NCBI GenBank assembly: GCA_019090315.1
Contig: JAHRWD010000014.1
Span: 66,011-130,010, forward strand
Direction: 5' to 3'
DNA: 64,000 nt
From: Pseudomonadales bacterium
GTDB lineage: Bacteria; Pseudomonadota; Gammaproteobacteria; Pseudomonadales; JAHRWD01
Each line of letters opens with the position of its first letter. The stretch's first letter is position 1. The notes beneath the pieces were generated by a model that had not been told where the DNA came from, did no database searches, and saw only the letters and a list, made by a program, of their open reading frames with translations. Made by a program: the position numbers and the translations under genes. This document shows positions 7,922 through 41,194 of the stretch, piece after piece.

Positions 7922-9076
7922 TCAATACCAAATCGAAAAATAGAACCGTACAACATCGGCAGTCAGACTGTACAAGGGTTCATCTCCTGGCGCTCCATCT
8001 GCCGTCACATCACGGAAATCATCATACTCAAACATCAGGTGATCAACCTTGAGGTTAACACTCAATTTTTCCAGGTAGGTAGATTTCAACGGATAGATAT
8101 AGCTCACACCAAAACCGATTCTTTGAGATGTAAAAGTACTTAGCTCTTTATCACGAGCAAGAAATTTCTGTGAATCGGCATACGGATATAAGTCCGAATA
8201 AAAATCAGCACCTTCCTGAGAATAGAATCGAACATTTGCCTCAAGGATCCAATGGTCTCCCACCGTATGGGTGTATCGCAGAGTGATATTGTCGGCCTTG
8301 ATATTCCATGTATCTTCAAAGTACCGATACTCAAACATTATTGAAGCACGGTAAGGCAGATAGTACATTGACCGAATCGCAACGGCATCGCTGGTACGTG
8401 TTTCTGGATATCGTTCCGGCTCATAACTGTATCCAACGGGCACAGTCGAATCCAGGTATCGTACAGTTCGATAGGGGTTATTCAGAAAACCCTGATTGGT
8501 GATGGTTTCAAGTGTGACGTTAACTATCCAGTTTTTAGTCAAAATCTGCGAGAGATTAAACTGGTAGTTTCTGCTGGTTACATCTTCCTCGAAATCCGGG
8601 TCGCCGGTTTTGCCGACCACATCCGATCCCTGGGCATATCCAATCGATAGATTTGTCAGATCACCAAAAAAATCCTGGCTTATGGAGAACCTTAATGAGG
8701 ATGCAGAATAGTCATTCTCTTCGCTTTCGCCATAGCCGAAACTCATCAGCGTTTTTTCATGGAGGTAATCGATTCCGGCACTGACTTCGGTTCGCTCCTC
8801 TGTATAAGCGCTGGCGGTTGAGACTACATCAATCGAAGCACTACTAATGGTATCGACATAGTAATTTGCGCTGACTGATACGGTATCAGCAAAACCTTTT
8901 CGCACCAGTACCGATGGGCCATCTACAGTAATGCCACCCCCATCATAGGAGTGATACATCACATCAGCACGATCTTCGGGTAATACCGCAGCGATACTGC
9001 TGGTAGATACGAACAGAGAAATAAAGAGTGGTAATAAAAGGGTATGTAAACCTTTTGACTGGTTTCGCAGAGTCAT
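7922..9076 (-). CDS. DUF3570-like outer-membrane beta-barrel protein
   Basis: Has a signal peptide, alternating beta-strand pattern throughout and an aromatic C-terminus (FSIWY). It sits in the usual DUF4266/TlpA context. Confidence 0.65.
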   Translation of the reverse strand: MTLRNQSKGLHTLLLPLFISLFVSTSSIAAVLPEDRADVMYHSYDGGGITVDGPSVLVRKGFADTVSVSANYYVDTISSASIDVVSTASAYTEERTEVSAGIDYLHEKTLMSFGYGESEENDYSASSLRFSISQDFFGDLTNLSIGYAQGSDVVGKTGDPDFEEDVTSRNYQFNLSQILTKNWIVNVTLETITNQGFLNNPYRTVRYLDSTVPVGYSYEPERYPETRTSDAVAIRSMYYLPYRASIMFEYRYFEDTWNIKADNITLRYTHTVGDHWILEANVRFYSQEGADFYSDLYPYADSQKFLARDKELSTFTSQRIGFGVSYIYPLKSTYLEKLSVNLKVDHLMFEYDDFRDVTADGAPGDEPLYSLTADVVRFYFSIWY

Positions 9077-9109
9077 AATATATGGGAACTAACAGAGGGA
9101 TTACAAACC

Positions 9110-9361
9110 CTAGTTACAGCCACAACCTCCGCCACTTCCACCTTCGGCACCTCGGGCACCTTCCCGGGCTTGATGAACATGGTGCATATAACTTCCTTCA
9201 ACACCATCGCGATCAAAACTCATAATGGGATCAGCAAGGTTATTTCGCTCGTAGGGTTTAACCCAGGGTTTCGGCATAGAACAGCCACCAAGAACAACCG
9301 TCAGCAATAAATATGCGATAGCGGTTTTAAGGGTTTGTCCGGTAGCGTTCACAAACATCAA
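9110..9361 (-). CDS. DUF4266-like small lipoprotein
   Basis: Has the lipobox VLGGC and the glycine/cysteine C-terminal tail GGSGGGCGCN that I associate with DUF4266. Confidence 0.65.
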   Translation of the reverse strand: MMFVNATGQTLKTAIAYLLLTVVLGGCSMPKPWVKPYERNNLADPIMSFDRDGVEGSYMHHVHQAREGARGAEGGSGGGCGCN

Positions 9362-9363
9362 TT

Positions 9364-9876
9364 CTATTCACGAACCAGCGTTTTTACTTGCTGTGCGTAC
9401 AGCTCTTCATACCCAGGTTTGTAACCCTTATGTAGATAACGCATATTGCCATCACGATCGACCAGAATGGTACTCGGCATCGCATCTACTTTGAACAATT
9501 CTGTAACCCGGTTTTCGGTATCATAAAGAACCGGAAAATTTACCGGATTTTCCGCCAGCATTTCATTTGCTTTTGCGGAATTTTCCTCTACGTTAACACC
9601 CAGTATTGTAAAACCTAGATCCTCATATTTTTCCTGAATCTCACTTAATTCCGGCATCTCCTGCCGACAAGGACCACACCAGGACGCCCAAAAATTTATC
9701 ATCACTACCTGGCCTTTCAGCTCACTCAATCTCAGATTTTCCCCGGTACTGCTCTTCAGGGTAAAATCTGGAGCTGGCGCGTTCGATGCCGCGAAGCTAC
9801 CACTACTAATCAACAGCATTCCTGCCAATATCAGAAGATGTTTCATCAACAAAGAACAACTATTTTTTAACTTCAT
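9364..9876 (-). CDS. TlpA-family periplasmic thiol:disulfide oxidoreductase
   Basis: Has a signal peptide and the WCGPC active site (nt 9667-9681). The thioredoxin fold context reads VVMINFWASWCGPCRQEMP. Confidence 0.85.
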   Translation of the reverse strand: MKLKNSCSLLMKHLLILAGMLLISSGSFAASNAPAPDFTLKSSTGENLRLSELKGQVVMINFWASWCGPCRQEMPELSEIQEKYEDLGFTILGVNVEENSAKANEMLAENPVNFPVLYDTENRVTELFKVDAMPSTILVDRDGNMRYLHKGYKPGYEELYAQQVKTLVRE

Positions 9877-9927
9877 TTTTAATACCTTCTTTCAGAGCAA
9901 GAATGAGAACAACATGATCATCTGGCA

Positions 9928-10599
9928 TCAAAAAAACCAGGTAAGACCACCGGTAAATTCAAGGTTATGACTGGTTTTATCGACACCTAACAAATTCATA
10001 TTGAGCATGTGATCGCGCATATCAAGATGAAACGCAATTTCATCGGTTAGCAATAATCGATAACCAAAACCAAAATTGAGCGTGAAAAATTTGTCACCAG
10101 CAAACTCTGTAGTGCCGGCACCGGTCACCAGATAAAGTTCCGAAACAAAGGTTTTATTTTTGCTAAAAAACACCTCACCAGGAAACAGGTTGTATCCTAC
10201 AGAAACATTGTAGTAGCTGTATTCCCTTTGGTCATCGCTCAACAAATCAACACTACTAAGAATTTCAAAACTGGTTTTTTCAGTTTCCGACAGGCCGTAA
10301 ATACCTTCAACAAAAATTTGCTCGTTTACGTGATAGGCCAGCCTGGCAACAAACACACCATTCACACCAAAATCTTCTACGCTCAAAAGCCCGTAGGAAA
10401 CACCGAATTCAAAATCCTCGGTATCAATGTCTGGCTTTTCGATCTCTGTACGTTCTACCTCAGGCTCAAAATTGTCTGTAGCCGGGAGGGAATCATCCGC
10501 ATGAGATACTGATGTAACACCGACAAAAAGCAGCATCACAAAACAGGATAATCTGGCTAGTGGCTTGATCAGAAAAATACGCTGAATCCGGTTTTCCAT
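9928..10599 (-). CDS. small outer-membrane beta-barrel protein
   Basis: Has a signal peptide ending in SHA, an acidic linker, an amphipathic strand pattern and the C-terminal GGLTWFF. It overlaps the upstream gene by 31 nt. Confidence 0.6.
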   Translation of the reverse strand: MENRIQRIFLIKPLARLSCFVMLLFVGVTSVSHADDSLPATDNFEPEVERTEIEKPDIDTEDFEFGVSYGLLSVEDFGVNGVFVARLAYHVNEQIFVEGIYGLSETEKTSFEILSSVDLLSDDQREYSYYNVSVGYNLFPGEVFFSKNKTFVSELYLVTGAGTTEFAGDKFFTLNFGFGYRLLLTDEIAFHLDMRDHMLNMNLLGVDKTSHNLEFTGGLTWFF

Positions 10600-11417
10600 T
10601 CGTTCACAATCTCATTGTCACTTCTGTTTGTTAAAACAACATGTTGTTTGTAGTCGACACGCCATATAAACCGATCGGTCAGGTATATTTTTACACCCAG
10701 GCCAACGGATACCAACTGATTGGTACTGTTTTTACTCTGCACCAAAGTAGTTTTTGGTGTGGTTTCAATTACCCCGTAACCTAAAAAAACAAAGGGCGAT
10801 ACTCGCCAGTGTGCAAATGGCTGATTAACGATTCCCGCTGACAAAAACTGGCTGTTTGAAAAATTTCCGTTCACCTGTGATAAGGAAACTTCTGCGGAGA
10901 GGTTGGTTGAAAACCGGTAACCAAGATCTATCGACGTCAGCCTTGCTCCGGCGAAGTCCCCAATTGCTACACCTGCTTCAAACGTTCTTCCGCCAAACTC
11001 ATCTTCACCTACATCCGTAACGACAAATTTCTCTCCGGTCAGATGCAAAGTATTTTCCATCTGATCACGACTGACCCAACCACTTTTGCCATTTTTTGTA
11101 ACCACTTTAAACCAGCTTGTTTTTTCCTTGAGAACCTCTACTGATCCGCCTTTTTCAACTACAAAAACAATTGGATAGCCAACACCCGGACCAGTATGCA
11201 GTTCGATATACGGATCCTTTACTTCAACCCAGTTTTTCACACTTTCTATATTGGGCGAAGCCTCTGCCCTGTCATTAAAAGTATCAGGGCCGGCAGTAGA
11301 AACCTCAGTACTGGTTTCACCATATGCTGTCCCGAAAAAAGCAAAATTCATCAGTAGCATCAAGGCTATCAGACTTACTATTTGCAAAATTTTTGTTTGG
11401 AGGTAGTGCCTCGTCAC
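10569..11417 (-). CDS. SH3b-domain protein fused to a C-terminal outer-membrane beta-barrel
   Basis: Has a signal peptide and an SH3-like segment, YIELHTGPGVGYPIVFVVEKGGSVEVLKEKTSWFKVVTKNGKSGWVSRDQM (about nt 11043-11240). A strand-pattern domain follows, ending in KTGFSVFF. GTG start. Confidence 0.6.
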   Translation of the reverse strand: MTRHYLQTKILQIVSLIALMLLMNFAFFGTAYGETSTEVSTAGPDTFNDRAEASPNIESVKNWVEVKDPYIELHTGPGVGYPIVFVVEKGGSVEVLKEKTSWFKVVTKNGKSGWVSRDQMENTLHLTGEKFVVTDVGEDEFGGRTFEAGVAIGDFAGARLTSIDLGYRFSTNLSAEVSLSQVNGNFSNSQFLSAGIVNQPFAHWRVSPFVFLGYGVIETTPKTTLVQSKNSTNQLVSVGLGVKIYLTDRFIWRVDYKQHVVLTNRSDNEIVNEWKTGFSVFF

Positions 11418-11557
11418 CCTTTTTAGCTCTCTCTACACAATGGCTTTAGTATGGACAAGTGTAGATGGAATATCTGGAACTGGCTGGCAATTTTCAGAAC
11501 TATTTCTGTTTGCCAATCAAGTTGTGAATTAGCCCGCAAACGCGATTCCCATTACCA

Positions 11558-14200
11558 CTATTGAGGTGCATCGAACGGGTTATTGTAGTACTGCGCACCA
11601 ATATCCAGCCATTCATAAATCAGTTTTAATTCAGCACCGCTAAGGTAGCTAGCGTGACTGCCGCCGGTTTCAAACAGGCTATAAAACCCAGCGCTGGAAT
11701 TAGCACCCGCTGTACGCATTACCGGGCTAACGGTAATCGTTACGAACACAGGGACCGGATCGCCAGTAATCGGCGGAAACAGTACTAGTTCACCGTCTTC
11801 ATCCACTTCAAATACCTGGTCTCCGTTAATATCCAGCAGTGGTATCTGTTCATCTAACAAGGCCCCGCCGTCCAACACCACGCTATTATCGTTAAACAGC
11901 AGTTCACGATAACTGGTCAGATGTTCAGGCTCATCGCTTGACGGGCCATCACGCAAATCCAGCTGCGCAATGGGCACCTGGGGATCGCCCATTGCATCCT
12001 GCGAGCTATGGCAGCCCTGACAGTTGTTGTCAGCAAGAACAGTAACCATGTCAACATCAAGAACTTCTCGGGTCTGTTGCCAGATCGGGTGGATATGTTC
12101 AGCGTAATTGATGGTAATACGGCAAAGATTGCTCCAGGTTGCCTGGCAAGCCGCAGAGGTAGGTATATCTGTGGTTAAATCGGCGTACTGATATGAAAAT
12201 GAAACATCCTTCGGGCGAACGGTCGGGTCATCGGTCCATTCATCGACAAAGTGGACATCAACCGTCGGTACCCGCACGCCATTGGCATCACTGTAGGTGG
12301 TGGCCATGGTTTCACCCAGATTGGCCAGCAGTGCTGGCTCGGTATTGGGGAATGGATTCCCTCCGACCGGTGCACCCGGGTGTATGGATGGAGCCTCCAT
12401 ATCCGCTCTGCCATGGGGCAGACCACTATTTTGTTGGTGGCAACCCACACATTCCAGCTCTTCGCCTGGTAAGAACTGAATCCAGTTGCCATGTCTGGCG
12501 GTAATCCGTTTCCCCGCTTTGTCCAGCACACTGAATACCAGCGGCACATTGGCAGGCACCTTCATTTTGACCGAACCGTCCGGCTCAATCGGTACATAAC
12601 CGATGATTTCCCGCATCAACTGCTGGGTGCTTCGACCAAAATCCCGTCCATTCAAATCGACCGTATCATCATCAGGGATGGAGACGGACTTAACAATACG
12701 CAAAAACCGCGCTGGCCGATCATCAGCCAGGGTCAGGGCGGGATCAGCAATTGTCGCAATACCGCCAACCCCGTTACTATCAACTCCATCAATGTCGTAC
12801 ACGCTGCGGATATGAATGACCGCTAACTCCTCATCCACCAAACTCGCATCCAGCTCCACGCCACTCTGCTTATCGGCAATCATCGGTGGCAGTGTTCGCT
12901 CCTGCATTACCACCACATCTGTGAAGAACTTGTTTTGCTCGGGAATCACCACCGGCAATCGGGTGTCGTCTGAGCTATCAATCATCCAGATGCCATACAT
13001 CGGCGATGCTTCGGTAGTATCCGGGTCGGCAATATTGTCGTCGCTGCAAAGCAGGTATGTCACCTCCAGCGTATCCGGATCGGTTTCTTGCAGTCGACAC
13101 TGGCTCCAGCTAACTAACATCCGATTGCTGTCGTCATACAAGGGGAAAAATGAGCTGTATCGGCCTGCGACGGATACCCCCTCTTCGGTGTCGATCAGGT
13201 CATCAAAAATTGATGCCTGAGCATTATCAATCGCATCATCGGTATTAATTTTTACAATATCGCCACCATAATGCAGGCTCGACATCGGCTGCAGTAGCGC
13301 CAGAACATCACCCTGCTGGGATTGCTGTACACCCACAAACTGTACCGTCGATCCATCACTGCCGGTATCGTGACTGTTGTGGCCATATAACAAACTGTGC
13401 TCTGTACCATCAGGGTTTGCGGTATAAAGATTGATCTGATTGAGATTGCCAAAGTGATCCCAACGGCTGTATAAAATGGTACCGTCGTTGAGCACCGTTG
13501 GATCCAGATCATGACTGGGGTTAAACGTAATTTGGCGAATATTGCTGCCATCCGAATTCATCACATGCAGCATCATTGCATATTCTTCTCGCTGCTCATC
13601 GAGTGCTGCAAACTGCGGTTTGCTTTCGTCAAGCAGGGTTGCTTTCGATTGACGCTGACGACTGGAGGAAAACAGAATACGTCCATCTGGAAGATAGGTT
13701 GGTGAGATATCATGTCCGGCTTCAGCAGTGATGTCCGACGCGATCACACGCGTCAGGCTACCGCCGGTTAAATCGTACTCCCAGATATTCCATTTTGGTT
13801 GTTCATCATCATCCGCGCCCGCAATATCCGGTGCTCGCATCGAAAACAGAACACGTTCACCATCGTATGAAACCCGCAGATCCTTCACATCGTAAAGCTC
13901 TCCACCGGCAAACACACCATCAGTAATCACCTGATCATCCGCAGAAACAGATGCGCGATCACGGATAATCAGTTGAGCGCCGGGATTAAACTCCACTACC
14001 TCTCGAAGATCCTGTGAAACGGGATCTCCATCTTCATCCACCGGCACCGGCCGCTTTACGTACGCCAGCGCATAATCCACCGCAACCGCATCAGTTTGTT
14101 CATCGGTGCTACCCAGAAGCCCCTGCTCGCAGCCGGATAGTACCGATATCAACGCTAACAAGACTATCGGAATATAGTTTCTACTGAATGAATGCATCAC
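11558..14200 (-). CDS. 880-aa lipoprotein with PD40/TolB-like beta-propeller repeats and two CxxCH motifs (HzsA-related / planctomycete cytochrome-like)
   Basis: Has the lipobox VLSGC and PD40-like repeats (DISPTYLPDGRILFSS, SHDLDPTVLNDGTILYSRW). CVGCH lies at nt 12437-12451 and CQGCH at nt 12008-12022. Confidence 0.7.
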   Translation of the reverse strand: MMHSFSRNYIPIVLLALISVLSGCEQGLLGSTDEQTDAVAVDYALAYVKRPVPVDEDGDPVSQDLREVVEFNPGAQLIIRDRASVSADDQVITDGVFAGGELYDVKDLRVSYDGERVLFSMRAPDIAGADDDEQPKWNIWEYDLTGGSLTRVIASDITAEAGHDISPTYLPDGRILFSSSRQRQSKATLLDESKPQFAALDEQREEYAMMLHVMNSDGSNIRQITFNPSHDLDPTVLNDGTILYSRWDHFGNLNQINLYTANPDGTEHSLLYGHNSHDTGSDGSTVQFVGVQQSQQGDVLALLQPMSSLHYGGDIVKINTDDAIDNAQASIFDDLIDTEEGVSVAGRYSSFFPLYDDSNRMLVSWSQCRLQETDPDTLEVTYLLCSDDNIADPDTTEASPMYGIWMIDSSDDTRLPVVIPEQNKFFTDVVVMQERTLPPMIADKQSGVELDASLVDEELAVIHIRSVYDIDGVDSNGVGGIATIADPALTLADDRPARFLRIVKSVSIPDDDTVDLNGRDFGRSTQQLMREIIGYVPIEPDGSVKMKVPANVPLVFSVLDKAGKRITARHGNWIQFLPGEELECVGCHQQNSGLPHGRADMEAPSIHPGAPVGGNPFPNTEPALLANLGETMATTYSDANGVRVPTVDVHFVDEWTDDPTVRPKDVSFSYQYADLTTDIPTSAACQATWSNLCRITINYAEHIHPIWQQTREVLDVDMVTVLADNNCQGCHSSQDAMGDPQVPIAQLDLRDGPSSDEPEHLTSYRELLFNDNSVVLDGGALLDEQIPLLDINGDQVFEVDEDGELVLFPPITGDPVPVFVTITVSPVMRTAGANSSAGFYSLFETGGSHASYLSGAELKLIYEWLDIGAQYYNNPFDAPQ

Positions 14201-14535
14201 AGCCTTTCGCTCATTGATTTTTTGTTTATGTGGGAGTACGCGGAAGTCAAATAACTGAAAACCGATTTAAACCTGTGAACAAAGTGTATCCGGTCACTCA
14301 CTTATCGCCAGCAAGTGACTTTATTTTTTGTGAACCACTCTGATTTTTCGTATCTATCCCGATCAATAATGTGATCCACACCTCCAAACGAGAGCAGCTC
14401 TACATCTTTCCCATTTTTTTTTCGTATCCTTAAATCCACACAACGTATTGACGCATCGATCAAAGTCATTTTTTTCAGCTATCGTTATTTGATCCATTAT
14501 TTGTAGCTATCAGCCATAGGTCGGGAGCCATTGCT

Positions 14536-15786
14536 ATGAAGCACGGCAGAGTAAAGTCACAAGAAAACCTCCAAAGCAGTGCAGTTTTTGCCTGTTTAAT
14601 TTTACTGTTGAGCGGGCTTTTACCCCACGCTAGCCTTGCGGGTGACCGTGAACAGGCAAAGCGAATACATGATCGTATCGCCGGTATACCACCCAGTCAG
14701 GCGGTCCTTGATACCATGGAAGGATTAGTAGCCGGTGGCGATGCGATAGGTGCCGCAGATGTTGCGATGGAAAACCCGGCATTCTATTCCGTTACCTTAA
14801 AAAATCTGGTGACACCCTGGACCAATGAGTCCCAAACTGTTTTTGCGGGTCTGAATGATTACACAGCAACTGTAATTGGCATCGTCAGGGAAAATTACGA
14901 CTTTAGACGAATTCTCTACGACGACATTCTTTTTGTCGCCAATCCTGCACTGGGTTTAACTCCCTACTCCCGCACCAGCAACGCCCATTACGAACAGATA
15001 GAGGAGCAAAACGTTGACCTGTCTTCCAATGCTGGACTGATCGAAACTACCCAGTCCGCAGTCACAGGGATTCCAGCCAGCGCAGCCGCCGGTGTCACCA
15101 CAACCCGTGCTGCCGCCAAAGCCTTCTTTATCGATGGCACCAACCGAGCGATGTTTCGTTTCACCTTGCTAAACCAACTCTGCACAGACCTGGAAGCGAT
15201 CAAAGATGTGAGCCGCGCCAGTGACCGTATTCCACGGGATGTATCACGAAGCCCTGGTGGCGATAGCCGCATATTCCTGAATGCCTGTATGGGCTGCCAT
15301 ACCGGCATGGATCCAATGAATCAGGCGTTTGCCTACTATGATTTTGAACATGATGTAACCGCTGATCCCGAAGGCAATGATGGTCAACTGGTCTATAACG
15401 ATGTTGGAGAAATTGACGCGGTAACCGGCACGCGTGTGCAGGAGAAATACCATTTCAACAAGGACACGTTTAGTTCAGGCTACATCTCCCTTGATGACAG
15501 CTGGGACAACTACTGGAGAGAGGGACCCAACGCAGCTTTAGGTTGGGCTGACTCAGCACCACTCGGTAGCGGTAATGGCGCAAAAAGCATGGGACAGGAG
15601 CTAGCCAATAGCGATGCATTTGCCAGCTGTCAGGTTAAAAAAGTATTTAAAGCAGTTTGCTTGCGACCCGCGGTGGATGCCACCGATAGAGCTCAGCTTG
15701 CATCGATGACCAGTTCGTTTAAATCCAACGACTATAACCTCAAGCAGGTATTTTCTGAATCTGCTGTTTACTGCATGGGGGAATAA
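14536..15786 (+). CDS. secreted 416-aa protein with one CxxCH motif (DUF1585/DUF1588-like module)
   Basis: The signal peptide ends in ASLAG. CMGCHTGMDPMNQAFAYYDF lies at nt 15286 onward and resembles the C-x-x-C-H-x-x-x-DP motif of planctomycete PSD-type modules (from memory). Confidence 0.6.
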   Translation: MKHGRVKSQENLQSSAVFACLILLLSGLLPHASLAGDREQAKRIHDRIAGIPPSQAVLDTMEGLVAGGDAIGAADVAMENPAFYSVTLKNLVTPWTNESQTVFAGLNDYTATVIGIVRENYDFRRILYDDILFVANPALGLTPYSRTSNAHYEQIEEQNVDLSSNAGLIETTQSAVTGIPASAAAGVTTTRAAAKAFFIDGTNRAMFRFTLLNQLCTDLEAIKDVSRASDRIPRDVSRSPGGDSRIFLNACMGCHTGMDPMNQAFAYYDFEHDVTADPEGNDGQLVYNDVGEIDAVTGTRVQEKYHFNKDTFSSGYISLDDSWDNYWREGPNAALGWADSAPLGSGNGAKSMGQELANSDAFASCQVKKVFKAVCLRPAVDATDRAQLASMTSSFKSNDYNLKQVFSESAVYCMGE

Positions 15787-15848
15787 TGATGAATCTTTTA
15801 AATATTCCAGCAATAAAGGCATCCAATTTTGTTTTTGGTGCTGCAACA

Positions 15849-18356
15849 ATGAGCAAAAAATTACTGACCGTTGTTGCTGCGGTTGCATTCCTTAATGGCT
15901 GTAGTGCCGGCGGTGGTGAAGAAAACCAGTCATTGGCCAACAACACTACATCGGTGACGTCCAACTATTCGGGGCCAGCTCCCGCCACTGCCGATGTACA
16001 ACAGTTCAAATTGAACCTGTGGGACAATCTGGTAGCGGAAAACCGTTGCGGTACCTGTCACTCTACCGGTGGACAGGCCCCCACCTTTGTTCAAAGCGAT
16101 GATATCAATATCGCCTATGCAGTAACCAATCCGCTGGTTGACCTGGAAACACCCGATGATTCCACGCTAGTAACCAAAGTTGCCGGTGGACACAACTGCT
16201 GGCTCACCAGCGACAGTGCCTGTGGCGATATCATTTCTGCCTACATTAGCGCCTGGGCAGGTGGAAGTGGCTCAATTTCCAATTCGGTGGTACTTACAGC
16301 ACCTGATATTCATGAACCGGGCAGTAGCAAAACCTTCCCGGCGGACGTCGATGACAGCCTGTTTGAAACCACGGTTTACCCAATACTTGTGGACAACTGC
16401 GCTGGATGCCACTCGGAAGCTGCTGCCACCCCAGAGTCTCCCTTCTTTGCCAGTGCTGACGTTGATATCGCCTATGATGCGGCAAGAAGTAAAATATCCC
16501 TGGATGATACCGAACAGTCACGCCTGGTGATCCGGGTTCGCAGTGAATTCCATAACTGCTGGACTGCGGATTGCGGAAGTGATGCGGATGAGCTGGCTGC
16601 CGCAATCGATCTATTGAGTGGAGCCATTGTAGTTGCACCGATCGATCCTGCTTTAGTGCTCAGTAAAGCACTAACACTGGTTGACGATGGTATTGTATCC
16701 AGCGGTGGTGGACGTCATGAAACTAACGTCATCGCACTCTATCAATTCAAAACCGGCGAAGGGTTCACCGCTTTTGATACCAGTGGTGTAAATCCGGCAT
16801 TAGACCTGACACTGACTGATGATGTTAGCTGGGTGGGTGGCTGGGGCATAGCCATTGCCAACGGCAAAGCCCAGGGCTCCACTACTGCCAGTAAAAAACT
16901 TTACGACCTGATTAGCGCAACCGGTGAGTACGCGATTGAAGCCTGGGTAGCACCTGGCAACGTCACCCAGGAAGGCCCGGCAGGTATTGTCAGCTATTCA
17001 GGGGGTTCCAGTACTCGCAACTTTACCCTTGGGCAGACACTCTATAACTACAACAGCCTAAATCGAAGCACCACCACTGGTGCCGACGGTGAACCGGCAG
17101 TTTCAACCCCTGATGCGGATGAAGTGCTTCAGGCAACGCTGCAACATGTTGTGGTCAATTACGACCCGATAAATGGCCGACAGATATACGTAAATGGTGT
17201 ATTGGAATCCGCAGCCGATACGGAAGCGGGAGGCACACTTGTCGACTGGGACGATAGTTTTGCGCTGGCGATAGGCAACGAACCATCAAATGATCGAGTC
17301 TGGCAGGGCAGCGTACGCATGATCGCTATCCATAATCGTATCCTCAACACAGACGAGATATTGCAGAACTTTACCGTAGGTGTAGGGCAACGTTTCTACC
17401 TGCTATTTAGCGTTGCGCACCTAATTGATGTACCAGAAAGCTATATCATTTTTGAAGTCAGCCAGTTTGATAACTACAGCTATCTGTTTAATCAGCCATT
17501 CTTCCTGAGCCTTGATCCGGACGCGGCACCCGTCAATATTCCCGTCCAAGGTATGCGAATTGGCATCAACAGCAAGGAAGCGGTTGCGGGGCAAAGTTAT
17601 GTCAACCTTAATCTTTTGCTCAATGAAACCGATTACGGTGAAGGGGGCCAGGTACTCTCCCCTCTTGGTACCGTTATCGCGCTGGAGAACGGACCGGTAT
17701 CTGACCAGTTTTTCCTCACCTTTGATCTTATTGGCGATCAAGAATATGCACGTACAGCGCCGACGGTTCCCGTACCTGCACCTCCAGGTGATCTGGACCC
17801 AGTATCCGATATCGGTGTGCGCACTTTCAGTGAGGTAAATGCTTCAATGGCGGCGATAACCGGAGTGGATCCCACCACCCCCGCTGTTGCGGCGACCTAT
17901 CAAACCATTCTTCAGCAACTTCCGCCGGTAGAGGATATTAGCAGCTTCCTCTCTACCCATCAGATGGCGGTTACTCAGCTTGCGATTCGTTACTGCGATG
18001 AACTGGTTGAGAGCCCAACATTGCGTGATAGCTTTTTCGGCGCTGGTTTTGGTTTTGAACAAAATGTAGCCACTGCATTTGGCAGCGGCGACTCAGCAGC
18101 GAAAAACCAGATCGTCACACAGATTTTTAACCAAATGGTTGGCTTGCCGGATGGTTCCGGAACGGCCCTGTCTTCTACAACAGATATAGCGAGCCTGAAA
18201 GCAGAGCTAATCGGCCCTGCGGCAACCAACCCTGACAACCTGTATGACCGATTAACCGGTAGCTGCCCCACGGGATGCGATGCGGAACGAACCAAAACCG
18301 TCGTTAAGGCGATGTGTGCATCAACCCTGGGTAGCGCGGCCATTCTGGTTCAATAA
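15849..18356 (+). CDS. lipoprotein with two CxxCH cytochrome-like modules, a LamG (concanavalin-like) domain and a C-terminal domain of unknown function
   Basis: The internal ATG at 15849 gives MSKKLLTVVAAVAFLNGC (lipobox). The ORF could alternatively start at 15786, overlapping the upstream stop by 1 nt. CGTCH is at 16047-16061 and CAGCH at 16398-16412. The LamG-like block is at about 16800-17375 and ends in WQGSVRMIAIHNRILNTDEI. Confidence 0.65.
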   Translation: MSKKLLTVVAAVAFLNGCSAGGGEENQSLANNTTSVTSNYSGPAPATADVQQFKLNLWDNLVAENRCGTCHSTGGQAPTFVQSDDINIAYAVTNPLVDLETPDDSTLVTKVAGGHNCWLTSDSACGDIISAYISAWAGGSGSISNSVVLTAPDIHEPGSSKTFPADVDDSLFETTVYPILVDNCAGCHSEAAATPESPFFASADVDIAYDAARSKISLDDTEQSRLVIRVRSEFHNCWTADCGSDADELAAAIDLLSGAIVVAPIDPALVLSKALTLVDDGIVSSGGGRHETNVIALYQFKTGEGFTAFDTSGVNPALDLTLTDDVSWVGGWGIAIANGKAQGSTTASKKLYDLISATGEYAIEAWVAPGNVTQEGPAGIVSYSGGSSTRNFTLGQTLYNYNSLNRSTTTGADGEPAVSTPDADEVLQATLQHVVVNYDPINGRQIYVNGVLESAADTEAGGTLVDWDDSFALAIGNEPSNDRVWQGSVRMIAIHNRILNTDEILQNFTVGVGQRFYLLFSVAHLIDVPESYIIFEVSQFDNYSYLFNQPFFLSLDPDAAPVNIPVQGMRIGINSKEAVAGQSYVNLNLLLNETDYGEGGQVLSPLGTVIALENGPVSDQFFLTFDLIGDQEYARTAPTVPVPAPPGDLDPVSDIGVRTFSEVNASMAAITGVDPTTPAVAATYQTILQQLPPVEDISSFLSTHQMAVTQLAIRYCDELVESPTLRDSFFGAGFGFEQNVATAFGSGDSAAKNQIVTQIFNQMVGLPDGSGTALSSTTDIASLKAELIGPAATNPDNLYDRLTGSCPTGCDAERTKTVVKAMCASTLGSAAILVQ

Positions 18357-18406
18357 TGAAACCACACTATAATTTTTGTACGAATATTCTCTTTTAGGAA
18401 TTGATC

Positions 18407-20005
18407 ATGTCCAGAATATCGAAAGGTCTGCACATCGATGAGCCGCTACGACACGCGGCCCATAAACGCCCCATTTCACGCCGTGATTTTGTTTCGCAGG
18501 GGTTTATGGCAGGCGCGGGTACCGTGGTCGGCACATCAATGTTCAGTATGTTTGCCAATCCACGTAGCGCCATGGCAGCACTGTCACCGGAATTTGAAGG
18601 TGAAGGCGGCCTAAAGGATATCTGTGGCATCAAGGGTGCCGGTGCCGGAAAAATACCATTTATCTGTTTTGATCTTGCCGGTGGTGCCAACATTGCTGGT
18701 TCAAATGTCCTGGTCGGTCAGCAAGGTGGTCAGCTAGATTTTCTCAGTACATCTGGCTACAGCAAGTTGGGACTACCTGGGGATATGATTCCGCCTATTC
18801 TCAATCCGGATACCGGTCTGAGTGACTTTATCAATACTGAGCTGGGACTGGCATTTCACTCTGATAGTGCATTTTTACGAGGAATTATTGAGCGTACTTC
18901 CCCGACCACCCGTGCCAATATCAATGGTGCGGTTATCCCTGCCCGTTCCAATAACGATACCGGTAATAACCCCCACAACCCTATGTACGGTATAGCAAAA
19001 GCTGGATCAGATGGCTCTTTACTAAACCTGATCGGCTCATCCAACTCTGAATCCGGTGGCAACTCAATGGCCCCCGCAGCATTGGTCGATCCTGAAGCAC
19101 GACCCTCCAAGATAGACCGCCCCAGTGATGTTACCGGTCTTGTGGACATCGGTGATCTGACGGAGTTATTGGGCCAGGAAGATGCGGTTGCGGTGATGGA
19201 ATCGATCTACCGAATCAGCAATAGTAAACTTGGTCAGGTCGATACCCAGCTCACCAGTGCTGCTGATGCACTCGTTAAGCAACTGGTCGAATGTGGCTAT
19301 ATAAAAAGTGCCGATATTGCAGACCGGTTTGGAGATCCGTCTGAGCTGAATCCAGAGCTGGATACCAACATCGTTGCTCCTAGTGGTGCTATTTTTACAA
19401 CTGATGAGTTTAACGCTGATAGTGAATTCAGGAAAACAGCTTCGGTAATGAAACTGGTTACCAATGGTTATGCCGGTGCCGGTACCATTACTATGGGCGG
19501 TTATGATTACCACACCGGTAATCGTTCAACCGGAGAGCAAAGGGATCTACGTGCCGGTCGTTGTATGGGCGCCTGCCTTGAATATGCGGCGCGAGCTGGA
19601 GTACCACTGATGATGTATGTATTCAGTGACGGTTCGGTATCCAGTAACGGTATGATTGATGAGTCTGAAAATGGCCGTGGAAAAGGGGTTTGGACTAGTG
19701 ATAACGGCTCTACCGCTACTCCATTCTTTTTAGTCTACAACCCCGGTGGCCGTCCCCAGTTGATGGGGGCTCCAGAGGAGCAGGCGATGCACCAGCAGAT
19801 CGGCTACATGAGTTCTGATGCATCGGTAAGCACCGCTTCATCCCCGGCGGCCAACAACGTGAACTTGCTCGTCAACACCGTACTCCTCAACTACATGGCA
19901 TTACATGGAGAACAGGAAAATTTTGGCACCCTATTTCCAGGCCATGGCCTGGGGAATGCTGCCAGCCAGGATGCGATGACCGCATTTGAGCGCGGCACAA
20001 TATAA
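18407..20005 (+). CDS. Tat-exported DUF1501-like (sulfatase/alkaline-phosphatase fold) protein
   Basis: The twin-arginine motif SRRDFV lies at nt 18476-18493 and is followed by a hydrophobic stretch. DUF1501-like blocks are present (FICFDLAGGANIAG, MGGYDYHTGN, VFSDGSV, TSDNGST). The ATG at 18407 is preceded by agga. Confidence 0.6.
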   Translation: MSRISKGLHIDEPLRHAAHKRPISRRDFVSQGFMAGAGTVVGTSMFSMFANPRSAMAALSPEFEGEGGLKDICGIKGAGAGKIPFICFDLAGGANIAGSNVLVGQQGGQLDFLSTSGYSKLGLPGDMIPPILNPDTGLSDFINTELGLAFHSDSAFLRGIIERTSPTTRANINGAVIPARSNNDTGNNPHNPMYGIAKAGSDGSLLNLIGSSNSESGGNSMAPAALVDPEARPSKIDRPSDVTGLVDIGDLTELLGQEDAVAVMESIYRISNSKLGQVDTQLTSAADALVKQLVECGYIKSADIADRFGDPSELNPELDTNIVAPSGAIFTTDEFNADSEFRKTASVMKLVTNGYAGAGTITMGGYDYHTGNRSTGEQRDLRAGRCMGACLEYAARAGVPLMMYVFSDGSVSSNGMIDESENGRGKGVWTSDNGSTATPFFLVYNPGGRPQLMGAPEEQAMHQQIGYMSSDASVSTASSPAANNVNLLVNTVLLNYMALHGEQENFGTLFPGHGLGNAASQDAMTAFERGTI

Positions 20006-37864: not shown

Positions 37865-40800
37865 CTAGGGCTGTTCTGTAAAACCACTATGCCAGATCTC
37901 GCCGTCAGCGGTGCCATCCAGCACCAGGTCTGAACCCCATTCGTCATCTTCGGTATAGATAATTACTTCACCGTCAACCGCGAACCAACTATCAACAAAA
38001 CTGACGGGAGACCCAATTTGGACTGCGACGATACTATCTGTCACGCTCCAGATTCCGGGCAGTACATCCGTCCCCTCGCTCTCTATGGAAGTAAAGGTCA
38101 GCGTTCCATCAACGTGAAAAACAACGGTTTCGCTCTCAGTAAAGCCTTCGTAAACCTCGGAATCAACCCAGGTAGTACCCGCAATGTCCTCAGTAGTAAT
38201 GGTATCCGCTCCACCGCAAGCCGCCACTACCGAGAGAAAATCGGTGTAGCTATTAAACGATGCAGGTTGGTCATTTACATCATCCCAGCCTGATTCATAA
38301 TCACAACCTAAAGCAGGCGCGCTGAAGTTATACAGCACATCCTGTGCAGCAATGTCGTTAAAGCTATACCTTTCAGCCGTAAGCTCTTCGTTACCGGGTG
38401 AATAACCACCTATTCGAACATAACCATCATGCTCGGTAAAAAACAGGTTTGTTTGCTCTCCAACATTCATACTGGCCCGTAACGCATCTGTTATTACCAC
38501 TACGTACAACGTTTTTCCGTTGACATCGCGCTCTTCCCAGGTAGTGCTTCCATCATGGATTGCAGAACCGTTTATATGTATTACGTAAAAGTTCGTGCTG
38601 CCATCATCGACCAGTTCAACTACGGTGGATATTCCTGATTCTCCAAAAAGCCGCAGTGCAGTAAGCTGAATTGCGCCACCTGGACCATCAATAGCACCTG
38701 CATTAGCTGCAGTCGCTACAGTAGCGCCACTCAGGGTGGCTACAAAACCATTAGTGTTCCAGTCTCCATCTCCCACAAATTGATACACTGCGTTGCATAA
38801 CCCATTGAAATCAGTCGGATTGTCGCAGCCATCCCCGTCTACCAGTTGATAAATCTCTTCAGAAAAGCTGTATGTGGCCCGATAGGCTTCTGCACCTTCA
38901 CTGAATACCGCATCACCCACCAGCTCTGAGAAGTCATAATCAACTCGTTCATCAACCAGATAGCCGGCAATGGTTTCGCCAGATAGATCAACGGCTGAAG
39001 CGCTAGTATGCTGACTAACGTAGGTCTCATCATTGGTGGTTTTAAGATCAACATCAATAGAACCATCTTCATTAACCGAGGTTACAGTCACGCTACCGTC
39101 AAATTCACTCCAGCCAGAGGCAGCTAATATCAGACCCTTTTTAAGGTTTAGCGGACGTTCCACTAACGTACCATCACTGCCTACATCTCCCGCTGTCTGA
39201 GTGGTACCTGTTACAGCATCATACGTTAAGGTACCCGCTTCAAAGCCCAGATATTCGCCTGTGCTGCTAAGACTCAGCTTGAAACCATTTGAGCCTCCTT
39301 CGGAGCTGATCAGGGTAGCTATGGATCCAGCAGGCAGACCGGTTTCTTCAGATTCACCGTAGTTATCGAAAATATTCTGCCATGCAGTGCCGTTGTATAC
39401 CCACTCTGCCTCGGTTCTTGTATTCCCGACAGGGTCAAGATCACCGGTGCGAACATACCCGTTGTATTCGGCCAAAATAAGTAGGTCACCCCCATCGATA
39501 TCAAACTGGCTGCGGATACTGGCCTCTAGAGAAAGCACGATAAGCTCCTCGCCATTCACGGTGCGCGTAATCCAGGTACCGGTTCCTATTTTGGTTGCAA
39601 AGCCCCAGAACTCATCAGGTTCATAGACATTAATAGCGCCATCTTCAACCAACTCAAAATGAGCATTACCTGCAGGTGTTCCATATGCAATAATTTTAAG
39701 TGAGCTACTATCTTCAGCAACCACTTCAGGATTAGCAGCGGTCTCGACGATTAAGGAGCTCAAGGTCGTTGCAAGCGAAAAAGCCCCACCCGAAAAATAG
39801 GATACGGTATTGCACATACCAGCGGTAGGTTCTTCACAGTCCCAATCCCGCAGTCTGTAGGACTCCTGTGTCGTTACAAACGTCAACTGATAAGCCTCAG
39901 CACCGGCACTGAACGTTGCATCGCCCACAATGGTTGTAGCATCAAATGGGCCATCTTCCGAGTTGATAAACGATGCAATTGGCTGACCAGATACGTCAAC
40001 TTTCAGTCCTGTCACCTGCTCCACACCAGAGCTGGAGCCATTCAAGATTTGAAAGTTAAAATCGACAGAACCATCAGAATTAACGGTTACGCTGATCGTT
40101 TCAGCATCTTCGATCACCCAGCCCGATGCGGTTAGCACCCGGTTCTGACGGGGTTCTGGAGTAAGAACAACCAGAGTACCGTCACTCTGTACCTCATATT
40201 CAATGTTTGTGGTTGTGTCGGTACCCGCATCGTAGGTGATGGTGCCAGTTTCAAGAGCCTCGAATTCACTGGTACCTTCATCCAGCTCAATCCATAACCA
40301 GTTGAGCCCGCCGGTTGATGATACCAGTGCTGCAATGTCTGCGATCACTGGATTCTCGTCGTTTTGTTGTTGCTCAACCTGATCATCAATATCTGTGGTA
40401 TCCATTTCTACATCATCTTCGACTACAGCGAAAACAGTAGCTGGATCAAATTCCTCCGCAGTATCATCATCAACCGCATCGGCGATCAGCTCGATATCAT
40501 CCACAACCCCTGCAATGACCAGCCTGAACAGCTTATCCGGGGTAGACTCAGCACTTTGTTCTACAGCGGCGCCTTCGGCGTCTTCAGAATTATTCGCGAT
40601 AACCTGAGTCGCAACCTGCGCGATCTCATGCAGGCGCTGATATTTCGCTGCCTCTGCTGGGTCGTCACTTTCTTCTTTGGCAACATAATCTTCCAGCAGC
40701 TCAGCATCCGTACCCAGTAGCGCCTGTATCGCTTCAACCGCATTTTCAACGCTGTAACCGTCTACATATCGGTTTTCTTCAATTTTAGCCTGTACCAGGG

Positions 40801-41194
40801 TGGTTAAGGGACTGACGAATTCAGAACCCGCTGGTGCGGTTAGGACAAAATCTTTGGCTACTGCTACGCCGGTATCTTTATCAATAGTATCACCCGCGGT
40901 AGCCTCCAGAATTACAGGGTTGCTGTCTATTTGATTCTGGGTCGCTTCAAGTGAAAATGCACCATCTTCGTCGGTGGTTGTGGTGGGCTCACCTGAATCA
41001 CAAGCCTTATTATCGTTCAGATCAAGACACACGGTTGCATTGATCAAATACCCATCCGCAGCCACGCCGGAATGAGTAGTGGTGGTACTGCCACCGCCAC
41101 CGCCACCACCGCTGCTGCTACTTCCGCAAGCGGTTATCAGCGCTGAACACAGCAGAACCATGGAACCTCTATAGAAATCATTTTTATTCATCAT
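37865..41194 (-). CDS. 1109-aa highly acidic surface/periplasmic lipoprotein with an internal ~330-aa tandem duplication
   Basis: The lipobox LITAC is followed by SSSSGGGGGGGS. An N-terminal DGYLINATVCLDLNDNKACDSGEPTTTTDEDGAFSL module follows, then repeat units at about nt 39335-40336 and 38330-39322. Confidence 0.7.
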   Translation of the reverse strand: MMNKNDFYRGSMVLLCSALITACGSSSSGGGGGGGSTTTTHSGVAADGYLINATVCLDLNDNKACDSGEPTTTTDEDGAFSLEATQNQIDSNPVILEATAGDTIDKDTGVAVAKDFVLTAPAGSEFVSPLTTLVQAKIEENRYVDGYSVENAVEAIQALLGTDAELLEDYVAKEESDDPAEAAKYQRLHEIAQVATQVIANNSEDAEGAAVEQSAESTPDKLFRLVIAGVVDDIELIADAVDDDTAEEFDPATVFAVVEDDVEMDTTDIDDQVEQQQNDENPVIADIAALVSSTGGLNWLWIELDEGTSEFEALETGTITYDAGTDTTTNIEYEVQSDGTLVVLTPEPRQNRVLTASGWVIEDAETISVTVNSDGSVDFNFQILNGSSSGVEQVTGLKVDVSGQPIASFINSEDGPFDATTIVGDATFSAGAEAYQLTFVTTQESYRLRDWDCEEPTAGMCNTVSYFSGGAFSLATTLSSLIVETAANPEVVAEDSSSLKIIAYGTPAGNAHFELVEDGAINVYEPDEFWGFATKIGTGTWITRTVNGEELIVLSLEASIRSQFDIDGGDLLILAEYNGYVRTGDLDPVGNTRTEAEWVYNGTAWQNIFDNYGESEETGLPAGSIATLISSEGGSNGFKLSLSSTGEYLGFEAGTLTYDAVTGTTQTAGDVGSDGTLVERPLNLKKGLILAASGWSEFDGSVTVTSVNEDGSIDVDLKTTNDETYVSQHTSASAVDLSGETIAGYLVDERVDYDFSELVGDAVFSEGAEAYRATYSFSEEIYQLVDGDGCDNPTDFNGLCNAVYQFVGDGDWNTNGFVATLSGATVATAANAGAIDGPGGAIQLTALRLFGESGISTVVELVDDGSTNFYVIHINGSAIHDGSTTWEERDVNGKTLYVVVITDALRASMNVGEQTNLFFTEHDGYVRIGGYSPGNEELTAERYSFNDIAAQDVLYNFSAPALGCDYESGWDDVNDQPASFNSYTDFLSVVAACGGADTITTEDIAGTTWVDSEVYEGFTESETVVFHVDGTLTFTSIESEGTDVLPGIWSVTDSIVAVQIGSPVSFVDSWFAVDGEVIIYTEDDEWGSDLVLDGTADGEIWHSGFTEQP

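Follow-up and report, generated by a model that had tools for sequence, protein, structure and literature searches.

The question raised by positions 7922-20005 of a 64-kb stretch of a Pseudomonadales genome (contig JAHRWD010000014.1; the whole stretch is referred to here as the window) is whether nine consecutive genes, arranged in two divergent runs and coding for exported proteins only, belong to one system of the cell envelope and, if so, of which kind. The minus-strand run codes, in the order of transcription, for a lipoprotein that resembles the alpha subunit of hydrazine synthase (F), two small outer-membrane beta-barrels (E and D), a thioredoxin (C), a DUF4266 lipoprotein (B) and a DUF3570 protein (A); the plus-strand run codes for two proteins with heme-binding motifs (G and H) and for a protein exported by the twin-arginine translocation (Tat) pathway (I). 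We propose, with moderate confidence, that the block is one envelope redox system composed of two modules, in which a thiol-flavin-heme chain would serve the Tat-exported protein I as a putative metalloenzyme.

A conserved unit of marine gammaproteobacteria

The conservation of the block was followed from both of its runs. Specifically, F was searched against one genome per GTDB species, which returned 34 loci with which all nine proteins were then compared by tblastn, and a profile of the I family was searched against metagenomes, which returned 80 loci, 31 of them with at least 9.5 kb upstream of I and 41 with at least 4 kb downstream. The gammaproteobacterial genome loci with enough flank (n = 16), which cover Cellvibrionaceae, Oleiphilaceae, Kangiellaceae/Aliikangiella, Simiduia and Pseudomonadales metagenome-assembled genomes (MAGs), show the same gene order and the same divergent arrangement in every case, C alone being missing in three otherwise complete blocks (L002, L003 and L031), and the layout in Alteromonas sp. 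M12, a locus reached through the search with I, is identical to that of the window. Moreover, G, H, F, E and D are present in 31 of the 31 metagenome loci with at least 9.5 kb of flank, A and B in 30 each and C in 29. The proteins of the related loci share only 40-70% identity with those of the window. The block is a conserved unit that is widespread in marine gammaproteobacteria.

The same holds for the residues on which redox chemistry would depend. Every intact orthologue (17 to 31 per protein, one fragmentary sequence being the exception at some sites) retains the cysteines and the histidine of the five CxxCH motifs, and the two inner residues vary freely, a pattern by which the heme motifs are judged to be under selection. 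The retention of Cys and His while the inner residues vary, together with the invariance of the CGC of B and the CxxC of C, indicates that the block is more than a chance assembly. The preliminary description of this DNA had staked its proposal on synteny and on the conservation of these cysteines, and both are found.

The layout itself was recomputed from the coordinates and read off the translations, and agrees with what had been described: nine open reading frames (ORFs), minus-strand spacings of 140, -31, 51, 2 and 33 nt, a 335-bp region between the runs, and five CxxCH motifs, at residues 584 and 727 of F, 251 of G and 88 and 205 of H. Sec signal peptides are present in A, C, D, E and G, lipoboxes in B (LGGC), F (LSGC) and H (LNGC), and a Tat motif (SRRDFV) in I; with one of these signals on each, all nine products are extracytoplasmic, as had been stated. 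The labels DUF3570, DUF4266, PD40, HZS_alpha and Laminin_G_3 are likewise borne out by Pfam matches, and the thioredoxin, the DUF3570 protein and the c-type hemes do point to redox chemistry. The features are collected in Table 1.

Table 1. Genes of the block and the divergent intergenic region, with window coordinates and the principal evidence for each assignment.
Feature	Coordinates	Strand	Evidence
A: DUF3570 protein	7922-9076	minus	Pfam PF12094, E 4.5e-38, 131.6 bits against a cut-off of 25
B: DUF4266 lipoprotein	9110-9361	minus	Pfam PF14086, E 8e-23, 81.5 bits against a cut-off of 27
C: exported TlpA/ResA-like thioredoxin	9364-9876	minus	Redoxin/AhpC-TSA, E 2.4e-31, 109 bits
D: OMP_myx_plus-type outer-membrane beta-barrel	9928-10599	minus	NCBIfam TIGR04565, 146.6 bits against a cut-off of 60
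E: SH3_3 and small outer-membrane beta-barrel	10569-11417	minus	SH3_3, E 1.4e-10; OMP_b-brl, E 1.5e-7
F: 880-aa PD40 and HZS_alpha diheme lipoprotein	11558-14200	minus	HZS_alpha PF18582, E 3.8e-16, 59.8 bits against a cut-off of 26.6
Divergent intergenic region, 335 bp	14201-14535		GC 0.39
G: 416-aa exported monoheme protein	14536-15786	plus	C251xxCHxxM258; PSD2 19.7 bits, below the cut-off of 25.8
H: 856-aa lipoprotein with two monoheme modules	15786-18356	plus	Laminin_G_3 PF13385, E 1.5e-18, 67.9 bits against a cut-off of 27.6
I: 534-aa Tat-exported protein	18401-20005	plus	SRRDFV; without Pfam match

The relay, its partners and the plus-strand proteins

Part of the minus-strand run belongs to a kind of cluster that has been described. 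According to Méheust et al. (2021, eLife, PMC8238504), DUF3570, DUF4266, a thioredoxin-like protein and ApbE form a recurrent gene cluster, often together with DsbD, which is proposed to be a hybrid thiol/flavin extracytosolic electron-transfer system of uncertain function; the DUF3570 protein of Chlorobium luteolum was found experimentally to be flavinylated by ApbE at two [S/T]GA[S/T] motifs, and the C-terminal CxC of DUF4266 is proposed to cycle between redox states. A, B and C are this DUF3570/DUF4266/thioredoxin trio, and the earlier statement that DUF3570 has no experimentally assigned function is out of date because its flavinylation by ApbE was demonstrated there.

With its Sec signal peptide and an aromatic C-terminal end (…FSIWY), A is likely to have the topology of an outer-membrane barrel. 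It carries two variants of the ApbE-type flavinylation motif in tandem, D75-TISSAS81 and D83-VVSTAS89, which are conserved in 22 of 22 orthologues. The canonical [S/T]GA[S/T] is missing in all but one of these 22 gamma- and betaproteobacterial sequences, in which the Gly is replaced; the motif takes the forms SSAS and STAS in the A of the window (S78-S-A-S81 and S86-T-A-S89) and SNAS in Betaproteobacteria. A80 and S81 never vary, and in the alignment they fall on the canonical SGAS of the ApbE-linked homologues of a Myxococcota MAG (L038) and of an 809-kb metagenome contig (L040), so that S81 is the likely site of flavin mononucleotide (FMN) attachment in A, as judged from the alignment. An apbE gene with a clear Pfam match (E 3.5e-80) is found beside the block in 15 of the 34 genome loci, after A, beyond I or upstream of F; in every betaproteobacterial locus that extends past F on its upstream side, it immediately precedes F. 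Of the 41 metagenome loci with 4 kb or more downstream of I, 16 have it as well.

In B, the lipobox Cys27 and the residues C80 and C82 are invariant in 23 sequences, and the protein ends in GGGCGCN. This C-terminus, invariant as GGGCGC(N/K), is similar to the GCGC signature reported for MYXO-CTERM sorting signals (bioRxiv 10.1101/2023.06.07.544157), but lacks a transmembrane or Arg-rich tail behind it; the same preprint reports that DUF4266, DUF3570 and TlpA genes adjoin JDVT-CTERM proteins in a few species. C has a signal peptide and a WCGPC active site, and W-C-[GA]-P-C is invariant in 21 sequences. It falls short of the NCBIfam equivalog cut-offs for ResA (115 against 170 bits), TlpA (82 against 230) and DsbE (68 against 123), and by these scores C is a generic member of the TlpA/ResA/DsbE periplasmic thioredoxins.

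The trio shares its operon with D, E and F. D ends in …LTWFF and matches Pfam OMP_b-brl weakly, and E ends in …FSVFF and has a partial match to TIGR04565 (38.4 bits); the overlap of 31 nt between E and D is about 28 nt in the orthologues. F has three parts: a PD40 beta-propeller, a middle domain of the HZS_alpha type, which contains C584xxCH, and a monoheme domain with C727xxCH at the C-terminus. It is collinear with the alpha subunit of hydrazine synthase, HzsA (PDB 5c2v_A), in three segments (E 5.8e-6, 27.6 bits), which correspond to the propeller, to the middle domain, at the end of which the first CxxCH lies, and to the C-terminal heme domain; H849 of F aligns with a His of HzsA. About 31 sequences, betaproteobacterial ones among them, keep the lipobox Cys24, both CxxCH motifs and H849. 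By this alignment, F is homologous to hydrazine synthase alpha, distantly but over its full length, and it travels with A-E in Gamma- and Betaproteobacteria. The likeness to HzsA (5C2V) thus lies in the architecture of propeller, middle domain and C-terminal heme; unlike HzsA, F is a lipoprotein of very low similarity to it, comes without beta and gamma subunits and is found in a non-anammox organism. The active-site heme of HzsA, alpha-I, is reportedly of unusual ligation, with a Tyr ligand and a zinc site. A hydrazine-synthase function for F was considered and rejected, since the nine proteins of the block include neither an HzsB-like nor an HzsC-like one and the match to the NCBIfam hydrazine_alpha model NF052339 (47 bits) is far below the equivalog cut-off of 800. 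F is rather placed with the many uncharacterised "HZS_alpha domain-containing" proteins, which are numerous and widespread outside Planctomycetota and of which none has a confirmed function (PMC12758564).

On the plus strand, G gives weak PSD2 matches in 17 of 17 orthologues (best E 1e-5) and weak PSCyt3 (DUF1588) matches in 6 of 17, the G of the window itself reaching E 0.17 for PSCyt3 and staying under the Pfam threshold for PSD2. Since these weak matches recur in the orthologues, G is plausibly a distant relative, through its C-terminal half, of the planctomycete PSCyt3-PSD2 proteins. H contains a repeated monoheme module, C88xxCH…H136-N-C-W and C205xxCH…H256-N-C-W, the partner His and Cys of which are conserved, followed by a Laminin_G_3 (LamG) domain found in 16 of 16 orthologues and by a C-terminal domain of no assigned type; the lipobox Cys is kept in all orthologues but one fragmentary sequence. 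The match of H to the MtrC/MtrF domain (E 0.021) is below threshold. The ATG of H at 15786 overlaps the stop codon of G (ATGA), and the start of H is uncertain because its lipoprotein signal peptide begins at M22 (MSKKLL…LNGC, nt 15849) and not at that ATG; M22 at 15849 is probably the true start. PSCyt1 and PSCyt2, which had been expected in the block, give no match in H, and G reaches PSD2 (DUF1585) only below threshold. Sequence and profile searches of PDB with A, G, H and I returned nothing useful beyond Tat-signal similarities and similarities to LamG and carbohydrate-binding modules (CBMs).

I is the most conserved protein of the block. It is identical (100%) to the NCBI protein KUG72_02055 of the same MAG, which is called as 532 aa from the ATG at 18407 and not as 534 aa from the TTG at 18401. 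Its homologues number more than 8000, and the best-scoring 120 clusters are drawn from several orders of Gammaproteobacteria, at identities of about 70% or higher; an exhaustive search of representatives with the I profile counts 1514 clusters at 50% identity, and the best 150 matches of that profile search are all clear family members (E 2e-58 or better). None of 74 sequences departs from R27 and R28; D186, D369-Y-H371 and D410 are likewise invariant, and D91 and D434 are nearly so. I has no Pfam match even at E<=10, a scan of 66 varied family members with identities as low as about 30% gave no Pfam domain match either, DUF1501 and DUF1552 included, and PDB sequence searches with I gave no match. 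The label "DUF1501-like" given to I in the preliminary description is for this reason not borne out at the level of sequence. Several members of the family (P0003, P0013, P0029, P0066, P0091, P0297 and P0309) are publicly named "general secretion pathway protein GspF", a name for which no support was found: apart from Tat-signal similarity, no member has a Pfam match, and all fold matches fall within the alkaline-phosphatase (AP) superfamily.

These fold matches come from structure prediction. A first AlphaFold run of I, on 30 sequences of at least 70% identity, reached a mean predicted local distance difference test (pLDDT) of 49, and its Foldseek matches were taken as a hint only; a model built with AF2 from a deeper alignment reached a pLDDT of 89 and a predicted template modelling score (pTM) of 0.84. 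Searched against PDB with Foldseek, this model has the AP superfamily in all of its top 50 matches, which are weak (E 3.8e-3 to 0.13, template modelling (TM) score 0.1-0.31) and comprise alkaline phosphatases, sulfatases, cofactor-independent phosphoglycerate mutases, ENPPs and EptC. The model thus lends weak support to a divergent AP-superfamily-like core. In the AP-superfamily fold, the metal ligands sit just after beta-strands; in the model of I, the conserved residues D91, D369-x-H371 and D410 are placed just after predicted beta-strands, and the conserved Asp/His set may be of the metal-binding kind. The earlier attribution of a sulfatase fold to I is therefore retained as a weak resemblance to the fold of the superfamily; the attribution to DUF1501, a family that Pfam places in the AP-superfamily clan, is not supported.

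A known arrangement close to G-H-I is that of the PSCyt/PSD and DUF1501/DUF1552 gene pairs, which are of unknown function and of which the genomes of the Planctomycetes-Verrucomicrobia-Chlamydiae (PVC) group encode many (PMC5615132); a search of the literature on DUF1501, DUF1552, DUF1800 and PSCyt found no functional study. Both arrangements set one or more heme-c proteins, here with a LamG/CBM domain, beside a Tat-exported protein, and the weak PSD2 and PSCyt3 matches of G and the AP-superfamily-type fold predicted for I add to the likeness. Conversely, the matches of G are below threshold, H is without PSCyt1 and PSCyt2, I is without DUF1501 and DUF1552, and each examined contig holds one copy of the block as opposed to the many genes of PVC genomes (PMC5615132). 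The description of the block as of "planctomycete type" comes down to the sub-threshold matches of G and to HZS_alpha in F, a domain that is widespread elsewhere (PMC12758564).

A proposed envelope redox system and its alternatives

The gene contexts of distant members of the I family, reached through a second homologue search, separate the block into two modules. In the Myxococcota MAG L038 and the metagenome contig L040, the minus strand codes for DsbD, thioredoxin, DUF4266, DUF3570 and ApbE, in this order, and the plus strand, divergent to this set, codes for G-like, LamG H-like and I-like proteins, which in L038 share 47%, 40% and 53% identity with those of the window; both loci are without F, and in L038 a barrel gene comes after apbE. 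In Peredibacter (L037) and in two contigs of the same gene layout (L039 and L041), a stand-alone four-gene set, G-Hc-I-Hn, is found, in which the C-terminal domain and the heme modules of H are separate genes on either side of the I-like gene, and no DUF3570 lies within 10 kb in these Bdellovibrionota-type loci. A gene for signal peptidase II (Peptidase_A8) is found near the four-gene set in all three (L037:7244-8035, L039:12877-13704 and L041:19258-20088), and in L039 it is directly downstream of the four-gene operon. G homologues with 39-47% identity adjoin the I-like genes in Myxococcota-type and Bdellovibrionota-type loci alike. Conversely, Betaproteobacteria (Methylibium and relatives) have the order apbE-F-(203-aa lipoprotein)-E-D-C-B-A and no G-H-I within 10 kb; what lies upstream is unrelated and codes for an EamA transporter, a GntR regulator and allophanate hydrolase. 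The 203-aa lipoprotein between F and E (L024:12877-13488; also L022, L023 and L025-L027) has no Pfam match; it carries a CAAAGCH motif of the CX4CH type, and its C-terminal "…LLQYWI…" resembles the C-terminal heme domain of F. From these contexts it follows that G-H-I is a self-standing core, that the DUF3570 relay is recurrently adjacent to it, and that the relay has F, D and E as its partners in proteobacteria. The claim that the block acts as one unit holds insofar as the two divergent runs are conserved together, and has to be given up in the sense of an indivisible machine, as they are two separable modules.

In the system that we propose, reductant would enter via DsbD or CcdA encoded elsewhere in the genome, which would keep the thioredoxin C reduced. 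C would pass reducing equivalents to the C-terminal CxC of the lipoprotein B, and B would hand them on to FMN held covalently on Ser81 of A, where an ApbE encoded outside the window would have attached it. The barrels D and E, one of which has an SH3 domain of the peptidoglycan type, and the diheme lipoprotein F are the fixed partners of this relay in Gamma- and Betaproteobacteria, and may form a complex with it. From A, electrons would reach the c-type hemes of F, G and H and, through them, either the Tat-exported putative metalloprotein I or a substrate that the LamG domain of H holds; the site of this transfer would be the periplasm or the outer membrane. G-H-I, that is, a monoheme protein, a diheme LamG lipoprotein and a Tat protein with a predicted AP-like fold, would thus be the business end of the system, at which I would act as the catalyst.

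The first half of this chain can be set beside the cluster of Méheust et al. (PMC8238504). The window shares with it the order of A-B-C, the CxC, the CxxC and the position of the flavinylation site; in addition, many orthologous blocks have apbE beside them, and the full DsbD-Trx-DUF4266-DUF3570-ApbE set (Trx, thioredoxin) stands beside G-H-I in the Myxococcota-type loci. The window differs by the absence of apbE and dsbD and by the replaced Gly of the motif (SSAS/STAS), and its relay lies in an operon with two barrels and an HzsA-like lipoprotein and is paired with G-H-I, partners that the available part of the paper does not mention. The porin-cytochrome conduits of the MtrCAB type offer a functional analogy, in that an outer-membrane barrel is combined with lipoprotein and periplasmic proteins of several redox centres; unlike them, the block has five hemes in place of decaheme chains and a flavin/thiol input, and there is no sequence relationship.

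Several observations weigh against the proposed chain. Neither apbE nor dsbD is found anywhere in the 64-kb window, so that both electron input and flavinylation must come from elsewhere, and no dsbD is found in the 80 gamma-type metagenome loci. The flavinylation of A is not assured, because the canonical Gly is replaced throughout the clade. C is missing from a few otherwise intact blocks (L002, L003 and L031), the modules part in some lineages, with A-F alone in Betaproteobacteria and G-H-I alone in Bdellovibrionota-type loci, and the AP-superfamily assignment of I is weak, with an E-value of 3.8e-3 at best and a TM score of 0.31 at most.

The parting of the modules is what would be expected if two independent systems merely lay side by side, one an A-F relay with an HzsA-like cytochrome and the other a separate heme/AP-like G-H-I set, kept together by inheritance of a shared locus; the betaproteobacterial apbE-F-(monoheme)-E-D-C-B-A and the Bdellovibrionota-type loci with G, the parts of H and I alone are both in line with it. 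We nevertheless consider this doubtful. All 31 well-flanked metagenome loci and every well-flanked gammaproteobacterial genome locus retain the divergent adjacency, at 40-70% identity and without the genes that flank the block in the window, and the pairing of G-H-I with DUF3570 recurs in the Myxococcota-type loci with DsbD and ApbE replacing F, D and E; such a recurrence with different accessory genes suggests selection for proximity and not mere inheritance. Less probable than this, in our estimation, is a role of A-B-C in maturation, by which C, perhaps with B, would keep the CxxCH motifs of the apocytochromes F, G and H reduced for heme attachment and the tetratricopeptide repeat (TPR) proteins encoded beside related blocks would be CcmI-like apocytochrome chaperones. 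The best NCBIfam matches of C, namely ResA, TlpA and DsbE/CcmG, are indeed thioredoxins of cytochrome maturation, and relatives of the block add a second thioredoxin-like gene and TPR proteins, one with a TPR_CcmH_CycH match (E 2.3e-4). However, C can be missing while F, G and H stay (L002, L003 and L031), the conserved flavinylation-type site of A is left unexplained, and the trio is widespread in ApbE/DsbD-centred clusters that PMC8238504 reads as electron transfer.

A role in hydrolysis is improbable, all the more so than the two preceding readings. I would then be an AP-superfamily phosphatase, sulfatase or phosphotransferase acting on a LamG-bound glycan or lipid, for nutrient acquisition or envelope modification, and the hemes would be structural or sensory. 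Every fold match of I is an AP-superfamily hydrolase or transferase, H has a LamG/CBM-like domain, and the block of Alteromonas sp. M12 (L035:11860-21599) is followed by a TonB-dependent receptor, a beta-helix protein, a 2-oxoglutarate (2OG)-Fe(II) oxygenase, PBP_like_2 and PhoR/PhoB, a neighbourhood that hints at a link with phosphate. That neighbourhood is limited to one genome, however, and the genes flanking the block in the window recur in no related locus; moreover, five heme sites under selection and a thiol/flavin relay are hard to explain without redox chemistry, and neither the sulfatase motif CxPxR nor another known nucleophile motif could be verified in I. Lastly, it is extremely improbable that F carries out nitrogen chemistry in the manner of hydrazine synthase (formation of an N-N bond, or conversion of hydroxylamine or NO) with the rest of the block supporting it. 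F does share the three-domain layout of HzsA, and its two heme motifs align with HzsA, as does the distal His of its C-terminal heme; against this stand the 47 bits for a cut-off of 800, the lack of HzsB and HzsC in the block and the fact that HZS_alpha proteins are without confirmed function (PMC12758564). The named carriers of the block, which belong to genera of aerobic marine heterotrophs, also count against nitrogen chemistry of this kind.

A broader proposal, to which we give a small chance, is that the block represents a hitherto unrecognised and very widespread outer-membrane flavin-heme conduit in common aerobic heterotrophs of the sea, in which a covalently flavinylated DUF3570 barrel would relay electrons from DsbD and thioredoxin to lipoprotein cytochromes, one of them HzsA-like, and to a Tat metalloenzyme; the I family, with its roughly 1500 clusters, extends over Gammaproteobacteria, Myxococcota and Bdellovibrionota. 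If this were so, the function of I would be the first handle on the PSCyt/PSD and DUF1501/1552 pairs of Planctomycetota and Verrucomicrobiota. The non-anammox HZS_alpha proteins would gain a first biological context from the block. The DUF3570 relay gains a candidate downstream partner, that is, heme proteins and a highly conserved Tat protein linked to it across phyla. If the parts were instead a maturation set and a hydrolase, the result would be an ordinary one. The DUF3570 relay as a kind is already known and the domain of F is catalogued; the literature searched holds no report of a constant link between the relay and a set of two small barrels and an HzsA-like diheme lipoprotein, of the cross-phylum pairing with G-H-I, or of the large Pfam-less family of the Tat-exported I. 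The identical block is available in cultured strains and described species, namely Alteromonas sp. M12, Aliikangiella coralliicola, A. maris and Simiduia litorea.

Surroundings of the block and the divergent intergenic region

In the window, the block stands between housekeeping genes that are unrelated to it, namely those for a nitroreductase and a DEAD-box helicase on one flank and for the beta and alpha subunits of ribonucleotide reductase (nrdB, nrdA) on the other. None of them is found in any of the related loci compared. An origin by a mobile element was set aside, as there is no integrase or transposase among the flanking genes examined, no dedicated search having been made, and the GC content of the block is about that of the window. 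Farther off, the largest unannotated gene of the window is an ORF of 1109 aa at 37865-41194 on the minus strand, without Pfam match at E<=1e-5.

The limits of the block that had been described hold for the window, where the flanks are unrelated, and are too narrow for many of its relatives, which often add apbE, a thioredoxin-like gene, a 200-aa protein and three TPR proteins. About half of the related loci with enough flank carry this extra conserved set beyond the block, in Gamma- and Betaproteobacteria, either 3' of A or 3' of I (L005:16346-22607, L011:17384-22611, L055:11647-18000, L108:13074-20000 and about ten more); it is absent from the window. Apart from apbE, which is not always part of it, the set consists of the second thioredoxin-like gene, the 200-aa protein, which is exported and has no Pfam match, and TPR proteins of about 677, 970 and 239 aa, one of which gives the weak TPR_CcmH_CycH match mentioned above.

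The divergent intergenic region, the GC content of which is lower than that of the window (0.478), presumably holds the promoters of both runs. A promoter and terminator scan found no strong sigma-70 consensus in it and fewer promoter-like sites than in shuffled sequence, and an Rfam scan gave no credible match. Among the 9-mers of 21 orthologous intergenic regions, none is common to more than 6 of them. Just upstream of G, at 14343-14512, three to four direct copies of a motif of about 17 nt are found, with the form CATTTTTT..CGTATC / AGCTATC and the copies CATTTTTTTTTCGTATC, CATTTTTTTCAGCTATC and CATTATTTGTAGCTATC, and this repeat may be a regulator-binding array.

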